Shown in pieces: positions 17,694 to 62,578 of a stretch of DNA of 64,000 nucleotides; within the stretch, counting starts at the first letter, position 1; each line of letters starts with the position of its first letter. Made by a program: the position numbers and the translations under genes. The stretch covers positions 16,214 to 80,213 of the forward strand of contig JAGTRF010000004.1 of NCBI GenBank assembly GCA_018396775.1. Reading direction: 5' to 3'. This DNA is from Candidatus Bathyarchaeota archaeon. GTDB lineage: Archaea > Thermoproteota > Bathyarchaeia > 40CM-2-53-6 > DTDX01. The notes under the pieces are model-generated. The model ran no database searches, had not been told where the DNA came from, and saw only the letters and a program-made list of their open reading frames with translations.

Positions 17694-18503
17694 TTAGGAA
17701 ATAATTTTTAAAAATTCATCTGTTTTTTCATCAATTATTTTAATCGCTTCCTTTATTATTCTTTTTGGTGGTAAAGCTCCTGTAGATTCTAAATGGAAAA
17801 TAAATTTATTTTTTATCCAAGTTACTTTTATTGGTGAAGTCTTTTTTGGGCAATGGTTAACGCAATCAAGGCATAAAGTGCAATTTAACTCGTTTTCTAC
17901 AGTTAGCTTTCCATTACTCAATTTAAAAATGTTTCTTGGACAGAATTTAACGCATTCACCGCAGCCATCGCATTTTTTTTCATCAATAGTAATGCTTGGA
18001 TAATATTTATGGATGCAAAGGGAAACGGGTTGCCATTTAGCGTGTTCAACGCCTTTTCCAAGCTTAGCGTAAGCTTCAAGTTTTACTTTCTGTCTTGGAG
18101 CAAGCTTTAAAATTGGGATGTCTCCAGTTATAGGCTTTACATTAGGATCTTGAGGTTGCAAATCTTTAGAGTAAACAGTAATCGGCTCATCTTTAGCTTC
18201 AATATTTAACGTTAAGATCGTGCTGCATTTATTACAGCCTAACTCGCTTTTGCAAGAGCATTTTTCAGGTAAAATATAGCTGTCAAGATCTGTTGTAAGA
18301 GGAATAAGCCCTAATCTGTGAGCTAACACTTCATCATACATTAATGAAGAGTTTTCAAGAATCATAACATTTTCTATAGCCATCGTTGGGACTTCAGCTA
18401 TAATTACTCTTCTAAGAGCGTTAATAAAAGCGGTGGAAACCCCCTCAATTAAAATCTTTATTGAATCCTTATTTTCATGAAGAATTTTAACTTTCATCTT
18501 CAA
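17694..18503 (-). CDS. rpoD: DNA-directed RNA polymerase subunit D (Rpb3 homologue) with 4Fe-4S domain
   Basis: AFINALRRVIIAEVPTMAIE; ferredoxin-like CDGCGECVKFCP...CTLCLDCVNHCP. Confidence 0.85.
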   Translation of the reverse strand: MKMKVKILHENKDSIKILIEGVSTAFINALRRVIIAEVPTMAIENVMILENSSLMYDEVLAHRLGLIPLTTDLDSYILPEKCSCKSELGCNKCSTILTLNIEAKDEPITVYSKDLQPQDPNVKPITGDIPILKLAPRQKVKLEAYAKLGKGVEHAKWQPVSLCIHKYYPSITIDEKKCDGCGECVKFCPRNIFKLSNGKLTVENELNCTLCLDCVNHCPKKTSPIKVTWIKNKFIFHLESTGALPPKRIIKEAIKIIDEKTDEFLKIIS

Positions 18504-18595
18504 TTACCGTTAAATATTAACTTTTTGCAAACTGTATTCTGAAGCATTATAAAACTTAAATAAAAATTTATCTAAAACTTTAAATTGAATTAAAA

Positions 18596-18844
18596 TTGAT
18601 GAATGCTAAAATTTTTGAGTTAAGCATTATTTTAATATTTACTGGGTTAAGCATTATTTTAATAGGGTTAATTCTAGCTGCTACAAGATTTAAAGCAAAG
18701 ATTAATGGAGGAGGTATAATTTTTATAGGTCCTATACCCTTAATTTTCGGTTTAAACAAAGGGTTAAAAGGAGTATTGATTTTAATATTATTCATGTTAT
18801 TTCTACTGGTTTTATCGGTTCAGCTGCTTTTAACTTGGAGTTGA
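18596..18844 (+). CDS. small two-TM membrane protein (DUF131-like); paralogue of the C-terminal half of the next gene
   Basis: Entirely hydrophobic; shares GGGIIFIGPIPLIFGLNKG with NGGIMLFFGPIPFMLNFRDG in 18835..19248. Confidence 0.5.
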   Translation: MMNAKIFELSIILIFTGLSIILIGLILAATRFKAKINGGGIIFIGPIPLIFGLNKGLKGVLILILFMLFLLVLSVQLLLTWS

Positions 18845-19248
18845 AGCTTTTGAATGGGAAAACTTGTGAAGTTTGCTTAAGAAATCAAGCCAAATATGTT
18901 TGTGGGAAATGTGGTAGAAATGCATGCGAGTTTTGCTTTAACTCTCACTCTTGGCTTTGCTTAAAATGTGAAGAGCAAATGCAGCCTATAGCGAAAGTTG
19001 CAAGCTTTGATACATCTAAACTCATATTTTTAGGTTTTATATTGATTTTTATAGGTATGTTTATAATGTTCATAGCATTCTTATTAACAGGTGTAAGCAA
19101 TGGGGGAATAATGTTATTTTTTGGGCCAATACCATTCATGTTAAATTTTAGGGATGGAAACATTAAACATTTAATTTTAGTTTTTATAGCTTTTACTACT
19201 GTAATTCTTCTTTTTTTAACAATTCTCTTCTCTAAAAGAAAATATTGA
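18835..19248 (+). CDS. zinc-ribbon plus two-TM membrane protein
   Basis: N-terminal 8-Cys double zinc ribbon (CEVCLRNQAKYVCGKCGRNACEFCFNSHSWLCLKCEE), then a membrane domain homologous to 18596..18844. TTG start. Confidence 0.5.
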   Translation: MELKLLNGKTCEVCLRNQAKYVCGKCGRNACEFCFNSHSWLCLKCEEQMQPIAKVASFDTSKLIFLGFILIFIGMFIMFIAFLLTGVSNGGIMLFFGPIPFMLNFRDGNIKHLILVFIAFTTVILLFLTILFSKRKY

Positions 19249-19256
19249 TAATATTT

Positions 19257-19772
19257 TTAATTCTTTTTTAAAGCTGGATGATTTAAATTATTAAATGGGC
19301 TTTGAGGGGCATATTTAATTAAAGCTTCCTCTTCCTTGGTAACTAAGTATCCAGGAACAGAAACTATTTTATCACCTATCATTATATGCCCATGAGTTAC
19401 AAGCTGCCTAGCTTGATGAATTGATTTAGCTAAATTCAATTTAAAAACTAGAGTTTGCAACCTTCTCTCTAAAAGGTTTTTTACATCTAAATCAAGAACT
19501 TCATCTATTCCAGCATTTTCTGGGAGTAAACCTAGCTTTACAAGTTTAGGTATATATTCTCTTCGCAACTTTTCTCTCTCTTCTTCAGGTTTACCTAAAA
19601 GCGATCGAGCTATTGCTCTAATTTTAGAAAGCATGCTTTTATAACGCCAAAGCTCTCGTTTATTTCTCAACCCATACTCTCCTAAAAGCTTCAGCTCAGC
19701 CTCTAGTTGCTCTCTTCGCCAAGGATGCCTAGGCGTCTCATATTTTTTTCTTTGTTTTCTAGGATCACCCAT
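19257..19772 (-). CDS. rps4: ribosomal protein S4
   Basis: MGDPRKQRKKYETPRHPW...LGEYGLRNKRELW. Confidence 0.9.
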   Translation of the reverse strand: MGDPRKQRKKYETPRHPWRREQLEAELKLLGEYGLRNKRELWRYKSMLSKIRAIARSLLGKPEEEREKLRREYIPKLVKLGLLPENAGIDEVLDLDVKNLLERRLQTLVFKLNLAKSIHQARQLVTHGHIMIGDKIVSVPGYLVTKEEEALIKYAPQSPFNNLNHPALKKN

Positions 19773-20391: not shown

Positions 20392-20509
20392 TGGCGCCGG
20401 GAGTGGGATTTGAACCCACGAGGCCTCAAAAAGGCCACAGGCTTTCGAGCCTAGATCTCCAGGCTTAGGCTTTTTTAAACTGCCCCGTACCAGGCTCGGG
20501 AATCCCGGC
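20392..20509 (-). tRNA. type-II tRNA (Ser-like, long variable arm), 118 nt with CCA encoded. Holds ~28-30 extra nt in the anticodon arm, a candidate non-canonical intron. Anticodon is ambiguous (possibly CGA)
   Basis: Reverse complement: GCCGGGA-TT-CCCG-AGCCTGGTA-CGGG-G-CAG[TTTAAAAAAGCCTAAGCCTGGAGATCTAG]GCTCGAAAGCCTG-TGGCCTTTTTGAGGCC-TCGTGGGTTCAAATCCCAC-TCCCGGC-G-CCA. Acceptor, T-arm and 3' anticodon-stem half are identical to the tRNA at 36541. Confidence 0.7.
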
Positions 20510-20557: not shown

Positions 20558-21564
20558 TTATTTCTTCCATAGTTTTGGATAGGTTCCAGGAGGCATTATA
20601 ACCCTTTTAATTTCAACAGCTAATCCTTTATTTAACTCTAAAATTTGCTCTGTTGAAAGCAAAGCATTACCTAAAGCTACAACCTCATTTTTTAAAGTGA
20701 AAATAGCTACTATTTGTTTTGGTTGAATATTGGATTCTATCCTTACTATTCCTGGAACTGCTAAATAAGCTCCATGGCATATAGCGTCAACAGCCGAATC
20801 TTTTATGTAAATTTTCGGAATATACTCGAAACATTCTTCAATTGGGCGAATAATCTTTCTTAATTTTTCCTCGCCTCCAAAATTTTTATATTCAATTGCA
20901 GCTTCGAAAACTTCATGAAGAGTATGAATTTTTTCGTTTTCAGTGAAGGGCCCTGTTCTAATTCTTCTAAGCTCTTTCATATGAGCCCCAACACCTAACG
21001 CTTCACCTACATCAAAACAAAGTTTCCGTATATAGGTTCCTGCTTGACAAGAAACTTTAAATAAAACTCTTCTCTCTTCAACTTCAAGTAGCTTAATATT
21101 GTAAATTCTTCGCTTCCTAACTTCTCGTTTAACTGAAGCTCTTAAAGGTGGTTTTTGATATATTTCTCCAGTAAACTCTTTTAAAGCGTTAACGATTTTT
21201 TCTTCTGTCACATTACTATGTAATTGCATTAAGCATATGTATTCTTTACCGGAGTGAAGAAAAACCTGTAAAGCTTTTGTAGCATCCTCTAAAGCTATTG
21301 GAAGCACGCCAGTTACTTTTGGGTTTCCTCAGCTTAAGCTTCTAAGGTCCCGCCGTGACCAGCGCGCTTCACATCTAATATTTTTTTCACCCAAGCTGTA
21401 ACTTCATGGCTTGAGGGCCCTGGTGGTTTATCTAAATTTATTGCTCCAAAATTTATATAGTTTTGCATCGATCTATTTTCAGGGAGACAACCATATTTAA
21501 AATCTGTTTCACACTCTTCCTTCACTATAATTTCTCTTTTCAACATCCATGGCGGAATCTCCAT
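20558..21564 (-). CDS. cbf5: tRNA/rRNA pseudouridine-55 synthase Cbf5 (TruB family, PUA domain). The reading frame is interrupted by a 17-nt insert at the catalytic GTLD|PKVTG motif
   Basis: ORF track shows an N-terminal piece (21334..21564, ...LDKPPGPSSHEVTAWVKKILDVKRAGHGGTLEA*) and a C-terminal piece (20558..21307, GTG start). Conserved coding actually resumes at 21322 (PKVTGVLPIALEDA...) in another frame. Confidence 0.8.
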
Positions 21565-33396: not shown

Positions 33397-34503
33397 ATGG
33401 GTTCAAATGAATATCTTAAATTAAAGGATTTAGATAAATTTGGAATGTTAAACTTTATAGAGAAAGCTCCAGATTATTTACGTTTAACTTTAAATTTAAT
33501 TAAAAGTGGAGAAGTAAACTGGAGTAAAAACCTTGAGAATTTAGAGGGTTTAAAGGTAGAGAACGTTTTAATCTCTGGGCTTGGCGGCTCAGCTATAAGC
33601 GGGGACATAATTGTTGATTGGATTTGGGAAAAAAGCTCCATTCCAATAATAGTTAACAGAGATTATAAATTACCTCAATTTGCTGGAGAAAAAACTGTCG
33701 TTATAACGGTTAGCTATTCTGGAAATACATTTGAAACTTTAAATCAATTTTATGAAGCTTATAAAAGAAAGTGTATTTTATTCAGCGTTTCTTCTGGAGG
33801 AAAATTGATGAAAGCTTCTGAAAGGCTTAAGATTCCTTTTTTAAAAGTTAAAGAAAGTCTTCCACCTCGTGCAGCTTTACCATGCCTGCTTCCAGCTGTA
33901 ACATATATTTTATCAAAGTTTGAGCATTCAATTTTGATTTCTGAATTGGAAGCGGCGGCAAATAAGATGGATGAGGTGAAAAAAGAGGTTGGATTCCATC
34001 GTAAAGTTGAAGAGAATCCAGCTAAAAAAATGGCTTTAAACATTATTGGAAAATATCCAGTAATATATGCTTTTGCAAATATGGGAAGCGTTGCTAGAAG
34101 GATAAAAGATCAAATTAATGAAAATAGCAAGGTTTCAGCTAAATTTGATTTTTTACCTGAAGCATGTCATAATGAAATTGAGGGAACATTTTTTCCGGTG
34201 AAAGAAAACCTTTGCTTTCTATTTATTGAGCCTCAAGAAAAAATTGAAAAAGTTATAAGCGAGGAATTTAAAAAAGTTTTAAGAGAGAATGGCTTCATTA
34301 ATATTTATGATATTCCAGTGAAAGGAGAAACTAAAATAGAGAAGATTCTTACATCAATTTATTTCGGGGATTTTACTTCATTTTACTTATCTTTAGCATA
34401 TAATGTTGACCCAACAGTTACGAAGAATATTCAAAAATATAAAAATGGAGTAAGCGAAGAAGCTTCAAAATTAATTAATTATTTTGAAAGCCTTATCCTT
34501 TAG
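33397..34503 (+). CDS. bifunctional phosphoglucose/phosphomannose isomerase (SIS-domain, archaeal PGI/PMI family)
   Basis: VLISGLGGSAISGDII...VITVSYSGNTFETL SIS motifs; 368 aa. Confidence 0.7.
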   Translation: MGSNEYLKLKDLDKFGMLNFIEKAPDYLRLTLNLIKSGEVNWSKNLENLEGLKVENVLISGLGGSAISGDIIVDWIWEKSSIPIIVNRDYKLPQFAGEKTVVITVSYSGNTFETLNQFYEAYKRKCILFSVSSGGKLMKASERLKIPFLKVKESLPPRAALPCLLPAVTYILSKFEHSILISELEAAANKMDEVKKEVGFHRKVEENPAKKMALNIIGKYPVIYAFANMGSVARRIKDQINENSKVSAKFDFLPEACHNEIEGTFFPVKENLCFLFIEPQEKIEKVISEEFKKVLRENGFINIYDIPVKGETKIEKILTSIYFGDFTSFYLSLAYNVDPTVTKNIQKYKNGVSEEASKLINYFESLIL

Positions 34504-35959
34504 TTACACCTAATGGAACTAATCTAGCTACTTTAAAGGCCACTCCAACCTTATGGCTTACTTCAGCCACTCTATCTACATCTTTATAAGCGTCAGGGGC
34601 CTCCTCGCTTACAACAGCTATGCTAGCTGCTCTAATTAATATTCCTTGATTTTCAAGTTTTTGCTTAACTTCGCTTCCCCAAAACCTTTTTTTAGCTGCA
34701 GCTCTGCTTAAAACTCTTCCAGCACCATGCGCAGTTGAGCCAAAACTAACTTCCATAGCTTTTTTAGAGCCAACTAAAACCCAAGAGCTTGTTCCCATGC
34801 TTCCTGGAATAATAACTGGTTGACCTATGCTTCTATATTTTGCTGGCACATCTTTATGCTCCGGAGGAAAAGCTCTTGTTGCACCTTTTCTATGAACACA
34901 AACAATTCTTCTTTTTCCATTAACAACATGCTCTTCCTTTTTAGCTATGTTATGAGCAACATCATATACTAAATGCATTCCTAAAGACTCAGCTGATCTA
35001 TTGAAAATTTTTTCAAAAGCTTGTCTAGTCCAATGCGTTATCATTTGCCTATTAGCCCAAGCAAAATTACATGCAGCTGCCATAGCAGGTAAATAATCTT
35101 CAGCTTCAGGGCTTTTTATTGGAGCGCAAGCCAATTCTCTATCTGGAAGCTTTATATCATATTTTTTAACAGCTCTCTCCATAACCTTTAAGTAATCATC
35201 GCATATTTGATGACCGAAACCTCTACTACCTGTGTGAACTAAAACCATGATTTGCCCTTCTTCCTCAATTCCAAAACTTTTAGCTATATTTTTGTTAAAA
35301 ATTTTATCCACAACCTCCACTTCTAAAAAATGGTTTCCACTTCCTAAGCTTCCAAGCTGAGGGTAACCTCTACTCTTAGCTATAGAGCTGACTTTACTTG
35401 GATTAGCGCTGCTCATGCATCCATTTTCCTCGCAGTTTTCAGCATCTTCAGGCCAACCGTAACCCGCATCTATAGCCCAATTAACGCCTTCAGAAGCTAC
35501 TTTATCAAGCTCTGAAAGAGCAACCCTTAATTTTCCCCTGCTTCCTAATCCTGAAGGAATATAATTAAATAATACATCAAGCAGCTTTGGTAAAACAGGT
35601 TTAACATCATTAATTCTTAAGTTAGTTCTTATAAGTCGAACTCCACAATTTATATCGTAACCCACTCCACCAGGGCTTACAACGCCCTCTTCATAATCTG
35701 TAGCTGCCACTCCACCTATTGGAAAACCATACCCTTCATGGCCATCAGGTAAAGTAATAGACCATTTATAAATTCCCGGTAAATGAGCTACATTAGCGCA
35801 CTGCTCAATCGTTAAATCCCCCTTCATTTTTTCAAGCAAAACTTCATCGCTATAAATTCTTCCTGGAACCCGCATTCCAGACTTATAAGAAGTTGGAATC
35901 TCCCAAATACATTCATCCAGCTTTATTAACGGAACATGCTCAGAGCTTCTTCCAGACAT
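34493..35959 (-). CDS. rtcB: RNA-splicing ligase RtcB (tRNA exon ligase)
   Basis: ...NVAHLPGI...PDGHEGYGFPIGGV...DINCGVRL...HTGSRGFGHQ...GSTAHGAGR; 488 aa, no intein. Confidence 0.9.
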   Translation of the reverse strand: MSGRSSEHVPLIKLDECIWEIPTSYKSGMRVPGRIYSDEVLLEKMKGDLTIEQCANVAHLPGIYKWSITLPDGHEGYGFPIGGVAATDYEEGVVSPGGVGYDINCGVRLIRTNLRINDVKPVLPKLLDVLFNYIPSGLGSRGKLRVALSELDKVASEGVNWAIDAGYGWPEDAENCEENGCMSSANPSKVSSIAKSRGYPQLGSLGSGNHFLEVEVVDKIFNKNIAKSFGIEEEGQIMVLVHTGSRGFGHQICDDYLKVMERAVKKYDIKLPDRELACAPIKSPEAEDYLPAMAAACNFAWANRQMITHWTRQAFEKIFNRSAESLGMHLVYDVAHNIAKKEEHVVNGKRRIVCVHRKGATRAFPPEHKDVPAKYRSIGQPVIIPGSMGTSSWVLVGSKKAMEVSFGSTAHGAGRVLSRAAAKKRFWGSEVKQKLENQGILIRAASIAVVSEEAPDAYKDVDRVAEVSHKVGVAFKVARLVPLGVTKG

Positions 35960-36023: not shown

Positions 36024-36458
36024 TTATAAATCCAAAATAAACTTTGCTATAAATTTACCCGACTCTTGAGAAATACTCATCTTATGGTAAGTTACTGCTT
36101 TAACCTCTGTTTTAGATAAATGCTTATTTTTATCAAATGCTTCCCCAAAAACTTCAGCCTCTAAATAAAATAAATTATTTACCTGCGTTATTTTTTTAAC
36201 GTTAAAAATCGAGTAAAGCTTTAATTCTATTTCAAACTTTAAGAGTAAAGCTTCAAGCCAATTATGAAGAAGCACTATTTCATCTTCTCCTTCAACTTTA
36301 ATTTCATCCCTCAATTGAGGTTCAATTAATTTTGTATCCGTCATAACTTCGAACATAGCTAATCCAGCATTACTAAAAGCTTCTTCTAAGCTTTCACCAT
36401 AAGCAGCTATATAAGCGTCGCCCACATGCTCTAAAAACTCAAATTTTTTATCAACCAT
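36024..36458 (-). CDS. archease (RtcB activator)
   Basis: 144 aa; FEFLEHVGDAYIAAYGESLEEAFSNAGLAMFEVMTD; sits immediately downstream of rtcB. Confidence 0.8.
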   Translation of the reverse strand: MVDKKFEFLEHVGDAYIAAYGESLEEAFSNAGLAMFEVMTDTKLIEPQLRDEIKVEGEDEIVLLHNWLEALLLKFEIELKLYSIFNVKKITQVNNLFYLEAEVFGEAFDKNKHLSKTEVKAVTYHKMSISQESGKFIAKFILDL

Positions 36459-44771: not shown

Positions 44772-44813
44772 CTGCTTATAATGCAAATCTCCCTTAAAAA
44801 TTGCATATACTGA

Positions 44814-44887
44814 AGCCCCGGGCGGGCTTCGAACCCGCGACCTGCGGCTTACGAGGCCGCCGCTCTACCAGGCTAAGCCACCGGGGC
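44814..44887 (-). tRNA. tRNA-Thr(CGU), 74 nt, no intron, CCA not encoded
   Basis: Reverse complement: GCCCCGG-TG-GCTT-AGCCTGGTAGAGC-GGCGG-CCTCGTAA-GCCGC-AGGTC-GCGGG-TTCGAAG-CCCGC-CCGGGGC-T. Very GC-rich stems. Confidence 0.85.
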
Positions 44888-44937
44888 TTAATTTTAAATT
44901 AAAGTTTAATTAAAGCGTTTAAAGAGGATGCTTAAAT

Positions 44938-55864: not shown

Positions 55865-56905
55865 TTGAAGATAAAATTGGTTAAATTAAAGGCTAGAGAA
55901 GGCGATTTTCTTTTAACAATAGATAAACTCTTCTTTGATGTTAAAGGCTATTTACATCCCCCTGATCGAATAATAAGCTTTATTCGTTATTATCCAAGCA
56001 AAAGAGGAGAAAGAATCGTTAATAAAGAAAAATACGCGAAAATTTACGAGTTAAAAAAAAGATTTAAATTTCTTAAGAAAAAATATCCAATTTACATTTA
56101 TTATGATGGCGTTTTCCACTCTATAATACAGGGCGTTCCAATAAATATGGTTAAGAAGCTTTATAATCCTAAAGAAAAAGTTAAGGAATTAATGAAAAAC
56201 AACAAATTTAAAGTTGAAAGTGAAGCATTAAATTTAATTCAAGCTTTAGGTAAAGAAGCTAATCAAGAAATAAATAGATTCGGGGTTACAGGCTCAATTT
56301 TAGTAAATTTATTTACAAATGATTCAGATTTAGATGTGATTGTTTATGGATTTAAAGCAGCTGTTAAAGTTTATGAAGCTTTAAGAAAGTTAATTCAAGA
56401 AAGAAAAGAGTTTAAACCATGCGATAAAAAAGAATTATATAAAATTTATTTAGCTAGAGGAATGAATAAAGCTTTAAGCTTTAAAGATTTTTATGAAAAT
56501 GAGAAGAACAAGATTCTTCAAGGAAAATTTCATGAAAAAAACTATTTCATAAGATGCGTTAAAGACTGGAATGAAGTAAAAGAAGCTTATGGAGATGAAA
56601 TCTATTATCCAATTGGATTAAGCAAAATTAAAGCTATAGTGATTAATAACGAAGAAAGCATTTTAACACCTTGTAAATATGAAGTTTCTAATATTAAAGT
56701 TTTATCTGGAAGAAAAGCATTAATAAAGGAGATCGTATCTTTTAGAGGAAGATTCTGTGAGGCAGCTTCTATTGGAGATAAAATAATTGCTAGAGGCAAG
56801 CTTGAGAAAGTAATAAATGCGAAAGACAATAGTGAATTTCACCGTTTAATTTTAGGAGAAAACTCTAAAGACTTCCTAATTGTTAAGGAGAAAAGTAAAA
56901 CTTGA
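55865..56905 (+). CDS. uncharacterised protein with central pol-beta-type nucleotidyltransferase motif (paralogue A of three)
   Basis: N-terminal FFDVKGYLHPPDRIISFIRYYPSK; core NRFGVTGSILVNLFTNDSDLDVIVYG (hG[GS]-x9-13-DhD); C-terminal ESILTPCKYEV...EIVSFRGRF...GKLEKV...FHRLILG. TTG start; overlaps paralogue B by 4 nt. Confidence 0.6.
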   Translation: MKIKLVKLKAREGDFLLTIDKLFFDVKGYLHPPDRIISFIRYYPSKRGERIVNKEKYAKIYELKKRFKFLKKKYPIYIYYDGVFHSIIQGVPINMVKKLYNPKEKVKELMKNNKFKVESEALNLIQALGKEANQEINRFGVTGSILVNLFTNDSDLDVIVYGFKAAVKVYEALRKLIQERKEFKPCDKKELYKIYLARGMNKALSFKDFYENEKNKILQGKFHEKNYFIRCVKDWNEVKEAYGDEIYYPIGLSKIKAIVINNEESILTPCKYEVSNIKVLSGRKALIKEIVSFRGRFCEAASIGDKIIARGKLEKVINAKDNSEFHRLILGENSKDFLIVKEKSKT

Positions 56906-57933
56906 GAAGATTTAGAGATAGAGATTATATTAAAACTTTTGATGAGTTATATTTTACAGTTTTAGGAAATACACATCCAAAAGATAAAGTTATAGCTTAT
57001 TTAAAATATGCGCCATCGAAAAAAGGTATTTGGGGTAAATATCCTCACCTTTATGATAGACCAATTAAGGAATATACGATTCATAACATTAAAAAAATGA
57101 TGAATTTCTTAAAAAAGAATTACCCGCATTATATTCATAAAATTTTTAATATAGATTTCTCAGCTGTACCATGCGAAAGCATAATGACTCATTATAAACC
57201 TGAAGAAAAACTTCAACAATTAATAAAATTAAATGTTAAAGATGAGCTCCAAAAGAAAGTTGTTGAGTTAGCTTTAACTTTATCTAAAGAGAGTAAAGTA
57301 GAGATTAAAGATTTTGGGGTAACAGGTTCTATACTAATTGATTTACATAAATTGAATTTTTCTGATATAGATTTGACAGTTTATGGAAAAGAAAACAGTT
57401 TAGCTGTTAAAAAAGCTTTAAAGAACATTTACTCTAAAGAAGGTGAAATTCAAAAGTTTTCTATTAAAGATTTTGAAGAATGGTATAAAATAAAAGGACG
57501 CCTTTACCCATTAACGCTTAAAGAAGCTTTAACTCTTTTTGAGAAAGCTTGGAATAAAGGAAAATTTAAAGAAACACCTTTTTCAATTCACCCTATTAAA
57601 ATTGAAAGCGAGATTAAAGAAGATTACTATAAAAGACAGTATTTTCCAATATCTTTAGTTGCAGGTAAAGCAAAAATTATTGATGCAAGCGAATCAATTT
57701 TTATGCCTGGGAAATACAAAGTTGAATGCAAATTAAAGAGAGAAGTGAAAGTAAATGAAATTGTAACTTTCGAAGGGTTTTATGCTGGAGTAGCTGAAGA
57801 AGGAGAAGAAATTTTATTTAAAGGAAAATTAGAAAAAGTGGAAGATAAAAACAAAAATGAAAGTTACTTTAGAATCGTTGTAGGTTCGCTTGAAGCTAAA
57901 GGAGAAGATTACATAAAGATTGTTAAGGATTAG
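56902..57933 (+). CDS. uncharacterised pol-beta-type nucleotidyltransferase-motif protein (paralogue B)
   Basis: YFTVLGNTHPKDKVIAYLKYAPSK; KDFGVTGSILIDLHKLNFSDIDLTVYG; ESIFMPGKYKV...EIVTFEGFY...GKLEKV...YFRIVVG. Confidence 0.6.
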   Translation: MRRFRDRDYIKTFDELYFTVLGNTHPKDKVIAYLKYAPSKKGIWGKYPHLYDRPIKEYTIHNIKKMMNFLKKNYPHYIHKIFNIDFSAVPCESIMTHYKPEEKLQQLIKLNVKDELQKKVVELALTLSKESKVEIKDFGVTGSILIDLHKLNFSDIDLTVYGKENSLAVKKALKNIYSKEGEIQKFSIKDFEEWYKIKGRLYPLTLKEALTLFEKAWNKGKFKETPFSIHPIKIESEIKEDYYKRQYFPISLVAGKAKIIDASESIFMPGKYKVECKLKREVKVNEIVTFEGFYAGVAEEGEEILFKGKLEKVEDKNKNESYFRIVVGSLEAKGEDYIKIVKD

Positions 57934-58831
57934 ATTCTAAAGCTTCTTTTAAGTTTATTTGAATAGGGCCCAATTTTCCACCAAAGTTAACTGCACTTAT
58001 TTTTTTAACTCCTTTAACCTGAGCTGCAGCTTTAATTCCAGCAGCGGTAGCTTTCTTTACAATTTTTGTTGTAACACCATTAAACACTATTTCGTAAACG
58101 CTGTTAACGCCTTCAGGAACTTTACTATCTTCAATTAAGCTTTTTAAAGCTGGACAGTAAGGATGATTTGTTGAAGCTGGAAGCTTATATTTTCTAGCAC
58201 CAACCTTAGATCCGGACCTGCATATTCCACCTGGAAAAGGAAGAATTACACCCTCAATCTTTTGAATAGCTTCAACAGCTTTTTCAGCAGCTTCTAAAGC
58301 AGCCTTCCTATTTTCAGCCATTATAAGAAAATTTCCTCCAGCTGCACATCTTCTAACCCCAAACCTATCTTCTATAATAAATTCGCCCTCCATCACTGGA
58401 ATTCTCCAAATTTTTCTTTCAGCTAAAACATCACTTTTTTCAAACCCATCTCCAAACAGTTTAATTGCTCTACCCACCTTCAATCTTTTTTTAGCTAAAG
58501 GCATAGCATCAAAAGCAGCTGTGGTTGGGCAAGTTAATACGCATTGACCTAACCTGCTTATCAATTGAAGCTTTAAAGCGCTTCCAAACCTATGGTAAAC
58601 TTGAATATAAACTCCCGGCCTGTTATCTGGAGTTTCATTTGGTGAAGCTATAGGCCCTTCAAACCCTGCTTCAGCTGGAGACATAATTATAGATGAAGCG
58701 AAGCCTGTAGCGGTTTTAGCAGCTGTTAAAGCCCACTTCTCGTTTTCAGCTGTAATTAAAACTCTTGAAGCCCACATTGGAAAAGCTTCAGCAAAATCAT
58801 TATCATCAATCTCCACTTCCCCAATTTTCAT
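57923..58831 (-). CDS. ftr: formylmethanofuran:tetrahydromethanopterin N-formyltransferase
   Basis: MKIGEVEIDDNDFAEAFPMWASRVLITAENEKWALTAAKTATGFASSIIMSPAEAGFE...; 302 aa, collinear with Ftr proteins. Confidence 0.85.
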   Translation of the reverse strand: MKIGEVEIDDNDFAEAFPMWASRVLITAENEKWALTAAKTATGFASSIIMSPAEAGFEGPIASPNETPDNRPGVYIQVYHRFGSALKLQLISRLGQCVLTCPTTAAFDAMPLAKKRLKVGRAIKLFGDGFEKSDVLAERKIWRIPVMEGEFIIEDRFGVRRCAAGGNFLIMAENRKAALEAAEKAVEAIQKIEGVILPFPGGICRSGSKVGARKYKLPASTNHPYCPALKSLIEDSKVPEGVNSVYEIVFNGVTTKIVKKATAAGIKAAAQVKGVKKISAVNFGGKLGPIQINLKEALESNP

Positions 58832-58881: not shown

Positions 58882-59940
58882 TTAGCTAATTGTTTTAAGG
58901 GTTTGCTCATAATATCTTTTACCATAAGTTAAAACAAGCTGGTAAAGCTTTTCTCTATTACTTAATTTAACAAGCTCTAGATTTCCCTCTGCATAAATTT
59001 TATCTCCCTCTTTAGCTTGCATTCTAAATTCTTCAATATAGGAAACTATAGCGTCAATTCTAGAAACTTTAAAACCTTTAATTTCTTTAGCTTCAATCCA
59101 ATAAATAGAAGGCATAAAAATTGATTCCGACTCATTAATAACTTTTCCAATAACTGATACCCATCCCAACTTCTTAATTTTTAAAGGGTAAATCTGTTGA
59201 TTAACAATTTCTTTATCGCTTTTAACAGGTTCAAACTCTACTTTTATTTTTCTATTAAAGCTTTTATCAATTAAAACACCGTAAACTAATTTTCTTTTTT
59301 GATGGGCGAAAAACTCTTTTAAGGAAAGCTTTTTAAATCTCCACTTTTCTTTAAATGGTAAAACTTCAAATTCATTAGCCATAAAGCTTTTTTCATTATA
59401 AAATTCTTTTAACACATCTTTTAACTCAAGCAACTGTTTCCTACCATAAATGATGAAATCTAAATCAGAGTAGCTTGGATGATAAAAATCATGAAGAATT
59501 GAACCGAAAACTCCAAAATCATTAATTGAAAGTTTTGAGCGATTTAAAATTTCTGAAATAACTTTGAAAAGAGCCCTTATTAATTCATTATTTTTCTCGC
59601 TGTAAAAAACAGTTTTTAATTTTTCTTCAGGAAACTTAATTTGAGAAATCTGGTTTTTCTTTAAACCAATTAAGTTAAATTTTAAATGTGGGTGCTTCAC
59701 TTTATATTGAGGAAACTTCTTTTCAATAAATAATATTCCTTCATGCTCATAAAATTTGTAATATTTTTCGCCTTGAAACCCCTCTCTAAAAGCTTTAGAG
59801 TTTTTAGAATTAAATATTTTTAAAGGCGCGTATTCAGCGTCGCAAATAAAACCATTCACTGGATGCGTATACCCTAAAACCCTAAATATTATTCCCTCTT
59901 TAGAAGTTAACGCATCTCTATCTTTAATAATATTTCTCAT
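58882..59940 (-). CDS. uncharacterised pol-beta-type nucleotidyltransferase-motif protein (paralogue C, opposite strand)
   Basis: IFRVLGYTHPVNGFICDAEYAPLK; NDFGVFGSILHDFYHPSYSDLDFIIYG; ESIFMPSIYWI...AIVSYIEEF...GNLELV...YQLVLTYG. Confidence 0.6.
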   Translation of the reverse strand: MRNIIKDRDALTSKEGIIFRVLGYTHPVNGFICDAEYAPLKIFNSKNSKAFREGFQGEKYYKFYEHEGILFIEKKFPQYKVKHPHLKFNLIGLKKNQISQIKFPEEKLKTVFYSEKNNELIRALFKVISEILNRSKLSINDFGVFGSILHDFYHPSYSDLDFIIYGRKQLLELKDVLKEFYNEKSFMANEFEVLPFKEKWRFKKLSLKEFFAHQKRKLVYGVLIDKSFNRKIKVEFEPVKSDKEIVNQQIYPLKIKKLGWVSVIGKVINESESIFMPSIYWIEAKEIKGFKVSRIDAIVSYIEEFRMQAKEGDKIYAEGNLELVKLSNREKLYQLVLTYGKRYYEQTLKTIS

Positions 59941-60028: not shown

Positions 60029-60871
60029 GTGATTTTAGTTTTGGCAGTTAAAATTGGGTTTATAAAGCTTGGAAATATAGGTTCAGCGCCTTTAATAGAG
60101 TTTCTTTTAGATGAAAGAGCTGAAAGAGAAGATTTAAATGTAAGAGTTGTAAGCTCAGGCGCGAAATTAACTGTTGAAGAAGCAGCTGAAGCAGCTGAAA
60201 AACTTCTTGAATTTAAACCTGATTTAGCTATTGTGGTTAGCCCAAACGCTTCTTTACCTGGACCTGAAAAGGCTAGAGAAATTCTTAGCAAAGCAGGGAT
60301 TCCAGTTTTAGTTGTTTCAGATGGCCCAGCTAAAAAAGCTGTAAAAAAGCTTGAGGAAGGGGGTTTTGGATATTTAATAATTGAAGGTGATCCAATGATT
60401 GGTGCTAGAAGAGAATTTTTAGATCCAATAGAAATGGCTTTATTTAATGCTGAAGTTATCAAGGTTTTAGCCGGGTCAGGAGTTTTCAATATTTTATTTG
60501 CTGAAATCGATAAAATTATAGAAAGCTTAAAAAAGAGAGAAAAGCCTCAGCTTCCAAAAAGAATTATTGATAGCGAAGCAGCTGTTGAAGCTGCTGAATT
60601 TCAAAATCCATATGCTAAAGCTAAAGCTCAAGCAGCTTATGAAGCTGCTAAAAAAGTTGCTGAAATAAATGTTCAAGCTTGCTTTATAATTAAAGATTGG
60701 CAAAAATACACAACTTTAGCTGCTTCAGCTCATGAATTAATTAGGGAAGCTGCTAAATTAATTGATGCAGCTAGAGAAATAGAGAAAACAAGCGATTCAG
60801 TAATTAGGCATCCGCATTATGATGATGGAAAAATTTTATCTAAAAGGCGTTTAATAGAAAAGCCTAGGTGA
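60029..60871 (+). CDS. mtd: F420-dependent methylene-tetrahydromethanopterin dehydrogenase
   Basis: VKIGFIKLGNIGSAPLIEFLLDERAEREDLNVRVVSSGAKL...VSPNASLPGPEKAREILSKAGIPVLVVSDGPA...GDPMIGARREFLDP is collinear with Mtd. Confidence 0.85.
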   Translation: MILVLAVKIGFIKLGNIGSAPLIEFLLDERAEREDLNVRVVSSGAKLTVEEAAEAAEKLLEFKPDLAIVVSPNASLPGPEKAREILSKAGIPVLVVSDGPAKKAVKKLEEGGFGYLIIEGDPMIGARREFLDPIEMALFNAEVIKVLAGSGVFNILFAEIDKIIESLKKREKPQLPKRIIDSEAAVEAAEFQNPYAKAKAQAAYEAAKKVAEINVQACFIIKDWQKYTTLAASAHELIREAAKLIDAAREIEKTSDSVIRHPHYDDGKILSKRRLIEKPR

Positions 60872-60881
60872 AACTTTAGCG

Positions 60882-61271
60882 ATGAAAGTTAAGCTTATAA
60901 CTGGAAGAAGCTTGCAGCAAGGCGTAGGGAAGGAAACTGGAAAATTTTCTATAGAATATTTTAATAATGTAGCCATATGCGAGCTTGATCCAAGCGATAT
61001 GGAAACCTTAAATATATCGCCAGGAGAAAACGTTGTGGTGAAAACAAAATTCGGCGAAGTTATTTTAAAAGCTGTTAAATCTATGCAAGCTCCTCATAAA
61101 GGTGTAATTTTTATTCCTTACGGTCCCTGGGCTAATTTAGTTACGGATCCTGAAACTCATGGAAGCGGAATGCCAAATTTTAAAGGAATTGAAGCTGAAG
61201 TTTCTCCAGCAAAAGAGGAAAAAATCTTAACTTTAAAAGAAGTTTTAGAAAAAATTTCTGGAGGAAAATGA
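60882..61271 (+). CDS. fwdD: formylmethanofuran dehydrogenase subunit D (molybdopterin dinucleotide-binding domain)
   Basis: MKVKLITGRSLQQG...PYGPWANLV...; 129 aa. Confidence 0.8.
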   Translation: MKVKLITGRSLQQGVGKETGKFSIEYFNNVAICELDPSDMETLNISPGENVVVKTKFGEVILKAVKSMQAPHKGVIFIPYGPWANLVTDPETHGSGMPNFKGIEAEVSPAKEEKILTLKEVLEKISGGK

Positions 61272-62578
61272 ATTTAATGGAAAAAACAATTTATAATGCT
61301 GTTTGCACAATTTGCGGGTGCTGCTGCGATGATTTAGAAGTTAAAGTTGGAGATGGAAAAATAGTTGAGGTTAAAAACGCCTGCGCTATTTCATTAAGTA
61401 AATTTCAAAATTATAATAGTGAAGAAAGAATTATTAAACCAATGATTAAAAAGAATGGGGAATTTAAAGAATGCAGCTTTAAAGAAGCTGCTGAAAAAGC
61501 TTCGATGATTCTTGCTGAAGCTGAATACCCCTTAATTTATGGGTTAAGTTTAACAAGCACAGAGGCTATAGGTAAAGCTGTAGAGTTGGCTGAAGTTTTA
61601 GGAGGCGTTATAGATAATACAACATCTGTTTGTCATGGCCCAAGTTTAATAGGGGTTCATGATATAGGTGTGGTAACATGCACTTTAGGAGAAATTAAAA
61701 ATAGAGCTGATTTAATAATTTATTGGGCTTCAAATCCTGTTTTCAGTCATCCAAGGCATTTAGCTAGATATACAATTTTTAGTAAAGGAAAATTTAGGAA
61801 GGAAAGAAAAGAAAGAAAGCTTATAGTGGTAGATGTTAGAAAAACAGCTACGGCTAAACTAGCTGATATATTTATTCAAGCTATTCCAAACCAAGATTAT
61901 GAATTGCTTTCAGCTTTAAGAATGGCTGTTAAAGGAGAAGAAATTTATTTGGATGAAGTGGCTGGTGTTCCCGTAAACAAAATTGAAGAATTAGCTGATT
62001 TAATGATAAGCTGCGAGTTTGGAGTATTGTTTTTTGGTTTAGGATTAACAATGTCTCTTGGAAAAAGTAGAAATATAGATGCCGCCTTATCTTTGGTTAG
62101 AGATTTAAATGAAAAAACAAAATTTTTAATAATGCCTATGAGAGGCCATTATAATGTAACAGGTGCAAATGAAGTTATAGCTTGGCAAACAGGTTATCCA
62201 TTTGCAGTAGATTTTAGCCAAGGTTACCCAAAGTATAATCCTGGAGAAACAACAACAATAGAGCTTTTAACTAGAGGGGAATGTGATGCAGCTTTAATAA
62301 TAGGTTCAGATCCAGCAGCTCACTTTCCAGTTTCAGCAGTAAAGCATTTAATGAAAATCCCAGTAATAACAATTGATCCTCATAAAAATGCTACAACATT
62401 AATTTCAAATGTTGTTATTCCAACAGCTATAACAGGTATTGAAGTCGAAGGGACAGTTTATAGAATGGACGGGGTTCCATTAGAGTGTAAAAAGCTTGTT
62501 GAACCCCCCTTAGGCTTAAAATCTGATGAGGAAATTTTAACTGAAATCTTAGCGAATGTTAAAAAACTGAAAGGGTAA
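61268..62578 (+). CDS. fwdB: formylmethanofuran dehydrogenase subunit B (Cys-type, not Sec)
   Basis: N-terminal CTICGCCCDD Fe-S motif; the active-site region TSVCHGPS has Cys with no in-frame TGA. Confidence 0.8.
   Translation: MNLMEKTIYNAVCTICGCCCDDLEVKVGDGKIVEVKNACAISLSKFQNYNSEERIIKPMIKKNGEFKECSFKEAAEKASMILAEAEYPLIYGLSLTSTEAIGKAVELAEVLGGVIDNTTSVCHGPSLIGVHDIGVVTCTLGEIKNRADLIIYWASNPVFSHPRHLARYTIFSKGKFRKERKERKLIVVDVRKTATAKLADIFIQAIPNQDYELLSALRMAVKGEEIYLDEVAGVPVNKIEELADLMISCEFGVLFFGLGLTMSLGKSRNIDAALSLVRDLNEKTKFLIMPMRGHYNVTGANEVIAWQTGYPFAVDFSQGYPKYNPGETTTIELLTRGECDAALIIGSDPAAHFPVSAVKHLMKIPVITIDPHKNATTLISNVVIPTAITGIEVEGTVYRMDGVPLECKKLVEPPLGLKSDEEILTEILANVKKLKG

Follow-up and report, generated by a model that had tools for sequence, protein, structure and literature searches.

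The DNA analysed here, a stretch of 64,000 nucleotides from a Candidatus Bathyarchaeota archaeon (contig JAGTRF010000004.1; hereafter called the window), harbours on its minus strand the gene of the pseudouridine synthase Cbf5, whose coding frame is split by an insert of 17 nt that we consider as a candidate bulge-helix-bulge (BHB) intron. A genome scan placed the window in the Bathyarchaeia, its top match being a metagenome-assembled genome (MAG) of this class (locus L001; 88% amino-acid identity), and the G+C content of the host is 32%. The list of open reading frames (ORFs) contains an N-terminal ORF of 76 residues ending in ...RAGHGGTLEA* and a C-terminal ORF of 249 residues with a GTG start and the N-terminus MLPIALEDA (coordinates in Table 1), in agreement with an earlier description of the locus, hereafter called the sequence-only reading. 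On the sense strand, the gap reads ggg acc tta gaAGCTTAAGCTGAGGAAAc cca aaa gta act ggc gtg ctt cca, with an in-frame UAA inside the insert, three codons past the Leu codon.

We compared three possible 17-nt deletions. Removal of positions 21324..21340 (AGCTTAAGCTGAGGAAA) restores the frame, giving ...GHGGTLDPKVTGVLPIALE..., that is GHGGTL-D-PKVTGVLPIALE, and removal of 21325..21341 (AAGCTTAAGCTGAGGAA) yields an identical mRNA, whereas deletion of 21323..21339 produces GTL-E-PKV, in which the catalytic Asp is lost. The GTLD motif is regained solely by removing 21325..21341 or its equivalent shifted by 1 nt. The sequence-only reading was therefore right that a 17-nt removal restores the motif, and the interval that it had named, 21323..21339, is off by 1 nt, within the tolerance that it allowed. 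The junction 21342/21324 splits the catalytic Asp codon after its first base (G↓AC), and the spliced translation bears out the earlier claim that this codon is assembled only over the junction, from G and AC. The predicted spliced junction is ...GGGACCUUAG↓ACCCAAAAGUA..., also written GGCGGGACCTTAG↓ACCCAAAAGTAACTGG. The spliced product has 329 residues, of which residues 3-329 align to Pyrococcus furiosus Cbf5 (3lwo, the top match among solved Cbf5 proteins; E = 1.9e-120), and the alignment is free of gaps at the junction, where it covers aghggtldpkv+gvlp.

As an alternative, the two ORFs might be translated apart and assemble as a two-piece Cbf5, since an in-frame GTG, the Val codon of TGVLP, could start the second one. 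However, neither piece has the catalytic Asp, the N-terminal one ending in ...GTLEA*, and the interruption lies within the best-conserved motif of the active site. Furthermore, this GTG is an ordinary Val codon with a variable third base (GTC in L001), and separate translation would leave the BHB covariation described below unexplained. We thus regard a split gene as very unlikely.

Folding of 76 nt around the insert yielded a minimum free energy (MFE) structure of -33 kcal/mol (z = -4.8), and none of 200 shuffled sequences was equally stable. The sequence-only reading had proposed to look for a BHB, possibly relaxed, with both cuts 17 nt apart, and such a structure was found: anchored on the reading-frame junction, the insert parses as a BHB with cleavage sites at that distance. 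In the transcript, a 4-bp central helix (H) would arise from pairing between CCUU of the Thr-Leu codons and a GAGG close to the insert's 3' end, with an AGC-UUAA-GCU hairpin (h') on one side of H and GGG/CCC (h) and a 13-bp exon-exon helix on the other. This pairing would leave two 3-nt bulges, AG↓A (B1) and AA↓A (B2), where the arrows mark the predicted cuts, and the insert thus displays the two 3-nt bulges around a 4-bp helix of the canonical hBHBh' motif, in the definition of PMC7714728. Hairpin h' comprises three Watson-Crick pairs (AGC/GCU) and a UUAA loop, and it abuts both B1 and H, the canonical minimum for h' being two pairs. On the exon side, where the motif calls for two or more Watson-Crick pairs that close the 3' bulge directly, GGG/CCC forms three such pairs, but the A at 21348 is unpaired and stands opposite the bulge, which creates a 1x3 internal loop. 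Two elements singled out earlier are also present in the MFE structure, namely a 10-nt palindrome (AGCTTAAGCT), which turns out to be the intron's own hairpin h', and a 6-bp CCUUAG/CUGAGG helix with one G-U pair, flanked by GGG/CCC. The 6-bp pairing corresponds to helix H plus two competing pairs, and the BHB fold lies 1.3 kcal/mol above the MFE. No Rfam family matches the intron region up to E = 1.

In order to compare the insert with related loci, we used a genome scan with one genome per species (61 loci) and a metagenome scan, which brought the total sampling to 127 loci, both biased towards relatives of the query. For each locus, the GHGGTL and P.VTG motifs served as landmarks to detect an insert at the Asp codon. 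Inserts are present in Bathyarchaeia L001 (17 nt), L002 (21 nt) and L006-L009, L012, L030, L031 and L035 (19 nt each), in Hecatellales L045 and L047 (23 nt), in Methanomethylicia L049 (23 nt), in Sulfolobales L013 (33 nt) and in Desulfurococcaceae L048 (34 nt). The metagenome scan added 29 intron-bearing loci, so that an insert at the same codon is found in 45 loci including the window, with lengths of 17-34 nt, in Bathyarchaeia (including Hecatellales), Methanomethylicia, Sulfolobales and Desulfurococcaceae. The Desulfurococcaceae-type loci L105 and L109 have introns that are the same as, or near-identical to, that of L048, and an identical 17-nt intron occurs in five independent contigs, those of the window, L001, L062, L063 and L066. 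Among the loci of the genome scan, no insert was found in Hadesarchaea, Nitrososphaeria, DPANN, Heimdallarchaeota, Thermoplasmata or Methanosarcinales.

The sole sampled Bathyarchaeia cbf5 without intron is L003 (CAYFVN010000291.1), which reads GGG ACT CTC GAT CCG. In a single-gene neighbour-joining tree, to be taken as a rough guide only, the Bathyarchaeia form one clade whose members are all intron-bearing except L003, nested inside it. L003 seems to have lost the intron in its own lineage, much as has been described for Pyrodictiaceae and Ignicoccus. Of note, locus L035 (DATKOK010000132.1) is labelled 'Candidatus Methylomirabilota bacterium', but its cbf5 is archaeal, contains a BHB intron of 19 nt and groups with those of Bathyarchaeia L030 and L031. 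Mis-binning of an archaeal contig is the most likely explanation.

All 45 intron loci parse in one register, with helix H fully paired (4/4 bp) in 43 of them. The 5' bulge B1 reads AG↓A (UG↓A in Hecatellales) and the 3' bulge B2 reads NN↓A, and an h' hairpin of 3-12 bp directly adjoins both. In L077 (20 nt) and L088 (19 nt), GGGA replaces GGGG and H has 3/4 pairs in the standard register, which might reflect a 3' bulge of 4 nt or a displaced cleavage site. Covariation was counted on an alignment of the 32 distinct intron sequences. Helix H is 98.4% paired, with changes on both sides at two of its pairs, and its variants CCUU/GAGG, CCCU/GGGG and CUCU/GGAG represent synonymous changes of the Thr-Leu codons matched in the intron. 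Similarly, h' is 95.3% paired, with both-side changes at all four pairs tested. Sliding the 3' partners by 1-3 columns reduced overall pairing from 88% to at most 52%. Of 16 representative loci, 8 have exactly the BHB fold as their unconstrained MFE structure. Where the Asp codon of a relative is GAU, an A-U pair closes the 3' bulge directly, L002 being an example with a textbook hBHBh'. The inner 6 bp of the outer helix, between Ala-Gly and Thr-Gly codons, are complete in 7 of 16 intron-bearing genes and in none of 36 intron-less genes (means of 5.1/6 and 3.9/6 pairs, respectively, the lineages not being independent). This comparison of sequences suggests that synonymous sites are selected to hold the BHB.

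We then looked at substitutions between the window and L001, whose cbf5 genes are 84% identical overall at the nucleotide level. For the whole gene (326 codons), the rates of synonymous (dS) and non-synonymous (dN) substitutions are 0.661 and 0.068 (dN/dS 0.104); the corresponding values are 0.685, 0.082 and 0.120 for exon 1 (71 codons), and 0.657, 0.065 and 0.099 for exon 2 (254 codons). The intron has no difference in 17 positions and is part of a 46-nt invariant block. By our arithmetic, the chance of this under neutrality is ~5e-5, given a proportion of synonymous differences of 0.44. These substitution patterns indicate that purifying selection acts on both exons and on the intron.

These data bear on two alternative explanations. 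A pseudogene, in which the 17-nt insertion has inactivated cbf5 and the ORFs are decaying remnants, would fit the broken literal frame, with its in-frame stop codon soon after Leu, and the fact that no second cbf5 copy is visible within the window. Nevertheless, dN/dS values of 0.12 and 0.10 show strong purifying selection on both halves, which align full length to solved Cbf5, an enzyme near-universal in archaea. The insert, moreover, is kept at one codon in 45 loci of several classes and in each case parses as a BHB with compensatory changes, which leaves the pseudogene hardly credible. That the 17 nt are an assembly or sequencing artefact, absent from the real genome, has a negligible probability and nothing specific in its favour: the same 17 nt are found in four other contigs of different assemblies (L001, L062, L063 and L066), whose coding flanks, as measured for L001, differ from those of the window at ~16% of nucleotides, homologous inserts of 19-34 nt occupy the same codon in ~40 more contigs, and the insert is neither a homopolymer nor a tandem duplication. 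On these comparisons, the selection and conservation results exclude both explanations for practical purposes.

A further alternative is translational recoding, in which the ribosome hops or frameshifts over the 17 nt of an unspliced RNA. The insert is short and structured and has a stop codon directly past the take-off region, and it superficially resembles bypass elements. However, a hop would be unable to make the Asp codon, because G and AC sit on opposite sides of the insert, and matched take-off and landing codons are absent. Inserts of 17, 19, 21, 23, 33 and 34 nt differ in their effect on the frame and share one BHB geometry, which argues that the conserved feature is an endonuclease substrate rather than a frame offset. 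In addition, the positionally identical crenarchaeal intron is spliced, as demonstrated by cDNA and in vitro cleavage (PMC2738675; PMC10485636). Recoding is therefore highly improbable.

We conclude that the 17 nt very probably constitute a BHB intron in the cbf5 pre-mRNA. Site, fold, covariation and selection all support the initial proposal of a spliceosome-independent mini-intron of the crenarchaeal cbf5 type. The archaeal tRNA-splicing endonuclease would cut past the second nucleotide of each bulge, releasing exactly 17 nt, and the RNA ligase RtcB with its cofactor archease would join ...UUAG to ACCC.... As this ligation joins G to AC, it would create the GAC codon of the catalytic Asp and put the 249 downstream codons in frame. 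The genes for RtcB and archease are adjacent in the window, about 13-15 kb from cbf5, consistent with the ~14 kb noted earlier, and both are supported by Pfam matches. We propose, by analogy with what is reported for the TACK group, that the host endonuclease is presumably of the broad-specificity (alpha-beta)2 type.

Several observations weigh against this conclusion. The MFE structure favours the 6-bp CCUUAG/CUGAGG helix, which absorbs the 5' bulge, the 3' bulge of the window is not perfectly closed towards the exons (an unpaired A opposite, or an A.C mismatch), and the h' helix has 3 bp only; owing to these three features, the window substrate as modelled is a slightly relaxed BHB. No gene for the splicing endonuclease EndA was found in the 64-kb window by Pfam searches of all ORFs of at least 110 residues or by tblastn, for which an approximate Methanocaldococcus jannaschii EndA query gave only a weak match (E = 0.08), in one of the three nucleotidyltransferase paralogues. 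No intron-less copy of any intron-bearing cbf5 was present among the metagenome contigs. Finally, chance occurrences of a naive BHB pattern are numerous in the AT-rich window: a scan of both strands (4/4 pairs in H, a minimum of 3 bp in h' and of 2 bp in h) gave 1512 matches versus ~1130 in shuffled sequences, and a relaxed scan gave 2548 versus ~2030. The BHB motif alone thus proves little, and the reading-frame anchor and the comparative data are needed. When the reading frame fixes both site and length beforehand, the pattern fits ~3-4e-4 of the site/length combinations.

The naive scan was dropped as an intron finder because it is too unspecific, and it was kept for this per-site estimate. 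Searching the window for other split genes, by way of BHB-like removals that fuse two long ORFs, was uninformative, with 2498 candidates, nearly all of them ordinary gene junctions.

The crenarchaeal cbf5 intron, which the sequence-only reading had invoked as a precedent, lies between bases 1 and 2 of the catalytic Asp codon (Yokobori et al. 2009, PMC2738675), and the window junction falls at exactly this published site. Crenarchaeal introns are 16-44 bp long, with predicted cleavage between bulge residues 2 and 3; their BHBs are mostly unconventional, and cDNAs have confirmed splicing in several species (PMC2738675). In that 2009 survey, the intron was found in Desulfurococcales and Sulfolobales, with secondary losses, and was absent from Thermoproteales, Korarchaeum and two thaumarchaea, so that its origin was dated to the ancestor of Desulfurococcales and Sulfolobales (PMC2738675). 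Reviews of 2020 and 2023 still place it only in a small set of Crenarchaeota (PMC7714728, PMC10485636). In the literature searched, which covered few subscription journals, no cbf5 intron was reported from Bathyarchaeota or from another TACK lineage.

The window intron resembles its crenarchaeal counterparts in gene, Asp-codon site and size class (17 nt versus 16-44), in lacking an intronic ORF, in its BHB or relaxed BHB with cuts past the second bulge nucleotide, and in its central helix, in which the Thr-Leu codons pair with a G-rich 3'-terminal stretch of the intron. In L013 (Sulfolobales) and in L048, L105 and L109 (Desulfurococcaceae-type), the register is exactly that of the window. The window intron differs in its host, which belongs to the Bathyarchaeia rather than to the Desulfurococcales or Sulfolobales, and in that splicing, shown experimentally for the crenarchaeal introns, is predicted for the window lineage. 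The crenarchaeal cbf5 pre-mRNA intron was reportedly also treated by Watanabe et al. in 2002 and by Yoshinari et al. in 2006. The predicted structure, canonical hBHBh' or relaxed BHB, and the enzymes, EndA and RtcB with archease, are those of archaeal tRNA introns, which are of similar length (11-175 nt). In contrast with these, however, the cbf5 substrate is an mRNA without a tRNA body, in which codon-codon pairing between the exons supplies the outer helix, and splicing would yield a codon and not an anticodon loop. A BHB intron in the 5' untranslated region of Haloferax volcanii HVO_1309 also represents an mRNA processed at a BHB by the tRNA-splicing endonuclease (PMC7714728). That case differs by its location and its alpha-2-type enzyme, whereas the window intron interrupts the coding sequence at the active-site codon, and the active Cbf5 enzyme would depend on its removal.

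A neighbouring substrate of the same machinery appears to be a tRNA-Ser(GGA) gene, which occupies a GC-rich stretch 48 nt downstream of the cbf5 stop codon on the same strand. ARAGORN and Rfam made no call on it because of its two short BHB introns, removal of which leaves a perfect 90-nt class II cloverleaf. The positions of these introns, 29/30 and 37/38, bear out the earlier mention of tRNA introns at unusual positions, the 29/30 site being non-canonical. The gene and both intron sites are kept downstream of cbf5 in 11 other loci (L001, L062, L063, L066, L006-L009, L067, L069 and L070), with introns of 12-18 and 11-13 nt. The two-intron model was adopted after comparison of homologues. Single-intron models (ARAGORN on 4098 single deletions) were rejected, as the tRNA identities that they yielded contradicted one another and the anticodon arm came out as 6-nt or mismatched.

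Archaeal protein-coding introns are extremely rare, and cbf5 is the sole coding-sequence case in the literature searched, where its hosts are given as a few hyperthermophilic Crenarchaeota. The kind of intron described here is already known, and the Bathyarchaeia are a new lineage for it. As judged from the sampled contigs, it is conserved across this second large archaeal class, beyond the hot-spring Crenarchaeota. Many intron-bearing contigs originate from sediment, soil and groundwater metagenomes, and the intron is therefore not tied to hyperthermophily. The same nucleotide position and BHB geometry are shared by Methanomethylicia and almost all of the Bathyarchaeia lineages sampled, which implies either an origin much deeper in the Thermoproteota or repeated gain at one site. 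That the intron has persisted for so long within a codon of the active site speaks for a functional role, for instance in regulation.

A more far-reaching scenario, which we find rather doubtful, is that the intron was ancestral to most Thermoproteota (Bathyarchaeia, Methanomethylicia and Thermoprotei), was lost repeatedly and was kept as a coupling device, forming one processing unit with tRNA-Ser(GGA). Its origin would then not lie in the ancestor of Desulfurococcales and Sulfolobales, and L003, Nitrososphaeria and Thermoproteales would be examples of losses. If so, retention over hundreds of millions of years would couple the output of a pseudouridine synthase to the tRNA-splicing capacity of the cell, and cbf5 and the adjacent tRNA gene would constitute a single unit with three BHB introns. 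On the practical side, gene callers split cbf5 in two ORFs or flag it as a pseudogene in Bathyarchaeia MAGs, and tRNA finders miss the adjacent two-intron tRNA-Ser, thereby distorting estimates of completeness and tRNA complement for Bathyarchaeia.

Table 1. Features of the cbf5 locus and of other parts of the window (arrows, exon-intron boundary or predicted cut).
Feature	Coordinates	Strand	Remarks
cbf5 gene	20558..21564	-	Frame split by the 17-nt insert
N-terminal cbf5 ORF	21334..21564	-	ORF list
C-terminal cbf5 ORF	20558..21307	-	ORF list
cbf5 exon 1 (ATG ... GGG ACC TTA G)	21342..21564	-	3' end is the first base of the catalytic Asp codon; ORF list, spliced translation
17-nt BHB intron, predicted (AAGCUUAAGCUGAGGAA)	21325..21341	-	G↓AC boundary; removal gives GTLD-PKVTG; BHB parse; 21324..21340 equivalent
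cbf5 exon 2 (AC CCA AAA GTA ... stop)	20558..21324	-	3lwo alignment of the spliced protein
Central helix H, 5' strand CCUU (Thr-Leu codons)	21344..21347	-	4/4 pairs with GAGG
Central helix H, 3' strand GAGG (intronic)	21327..21330	-	4/4 pairs with CCUU
5' bulge B1 (AG↓A)	21341..21343	-	Predicted cut after nt 2, 21342/21341; cleavage rule from PMC2738675
Intron hairpin h' (AGC-UUAA-GCU)	21331..21340	-	RNAfold of the core
3' bulge B2 (AA↓A)	21324..21326	-	Predicted cut 21325/21324; unpaired in MFE and BHB-constrained folds
Exon-side helix h, 5' strand GGG (Gly codons)	21349..21351	-	MFE pairing with CCC; separated from H by unpaired A 21348
Exon-side helix h, 3' strand CCC (Asp/Pro codons)	21321..21323	-	MFE pairing with GGG
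Outer exon-exon helix, 5' strand GAAGCGCGCUGGU	21358..21370	-	13 bp in MFE
Outer exon-exon helix, 3' strand ACUGGCGUGCUUC	21301..21313	-	13 bp in MFE
tRNA-Ser(GGA), CCA encoded	20392..20509	-	
tRNA-Ser(GGA) intron 1	20465..20479	-	15 nt, position 29/30; H = GGGC/GCCU, 4/4
tRNA-Ser(GGA) intron 2	20444..20456	-	13 nt, position 37/38; H 3/4
RtcB RNA ligase	34493..35959	-	Pfam PF01139, E = 2.4e-177, full length
Archease (RtcB cofactor)	36024..36458	-	Pfam PF01951, E = 1.3e-39
tRNA-Thr(CGU)	44812..44888	-	Intron-free
rpoD	17694..18503		
82-residue ORF	18596..18844	+	Membrane-like
137-residue ORF	18835..19248	+	No Pfam match
Ribosomal protein S4	19257..19772		
Nucleotidyltransferase-like protein 1	55865..56905	+	~345 residues
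Nucleotidyltransferase-like protein 2	56902..57933	+	~345 residues
Nucleotidyltransferase-like protein 3	58882..59940	-	~345 residues
Ftr	57923..58831		H4MPT pathway
Mtd	60029..60871		H4MPT pathway
Formylmethanofuran-dehydrogenase-like subunits	60882..62578		Same neighbourhood

The intron-free tRNA-Thr(CGU) is the sole tRNA of the window called by standard tools. The window represents a typical archaeal ribosomal-protein neighbourhood, from which the gene for ribosomal protein S11 is absent at its usual place between those for S4 and rpoD; a tblastn search of the whole window with a generic S11 query found nothing convincing. The gap at that place (18503..19257) holds two plus-strand ORFs, the larger of which codes for a protein with a Cys-rich N-terminus and a hydrophobic C-terminus. 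Further along the window, three proteins of ~345 residues, probably paralogues, show a weak match to the nucleotidyltransferase signature PF01909 (E ~1e-4 to 1e-3). Their genes adjoin those of the tetrahydromethanopterin (H4MPT) pathway, including Ftr, Mtd and formylmethanofuran-dehydrogenase-like subunits.

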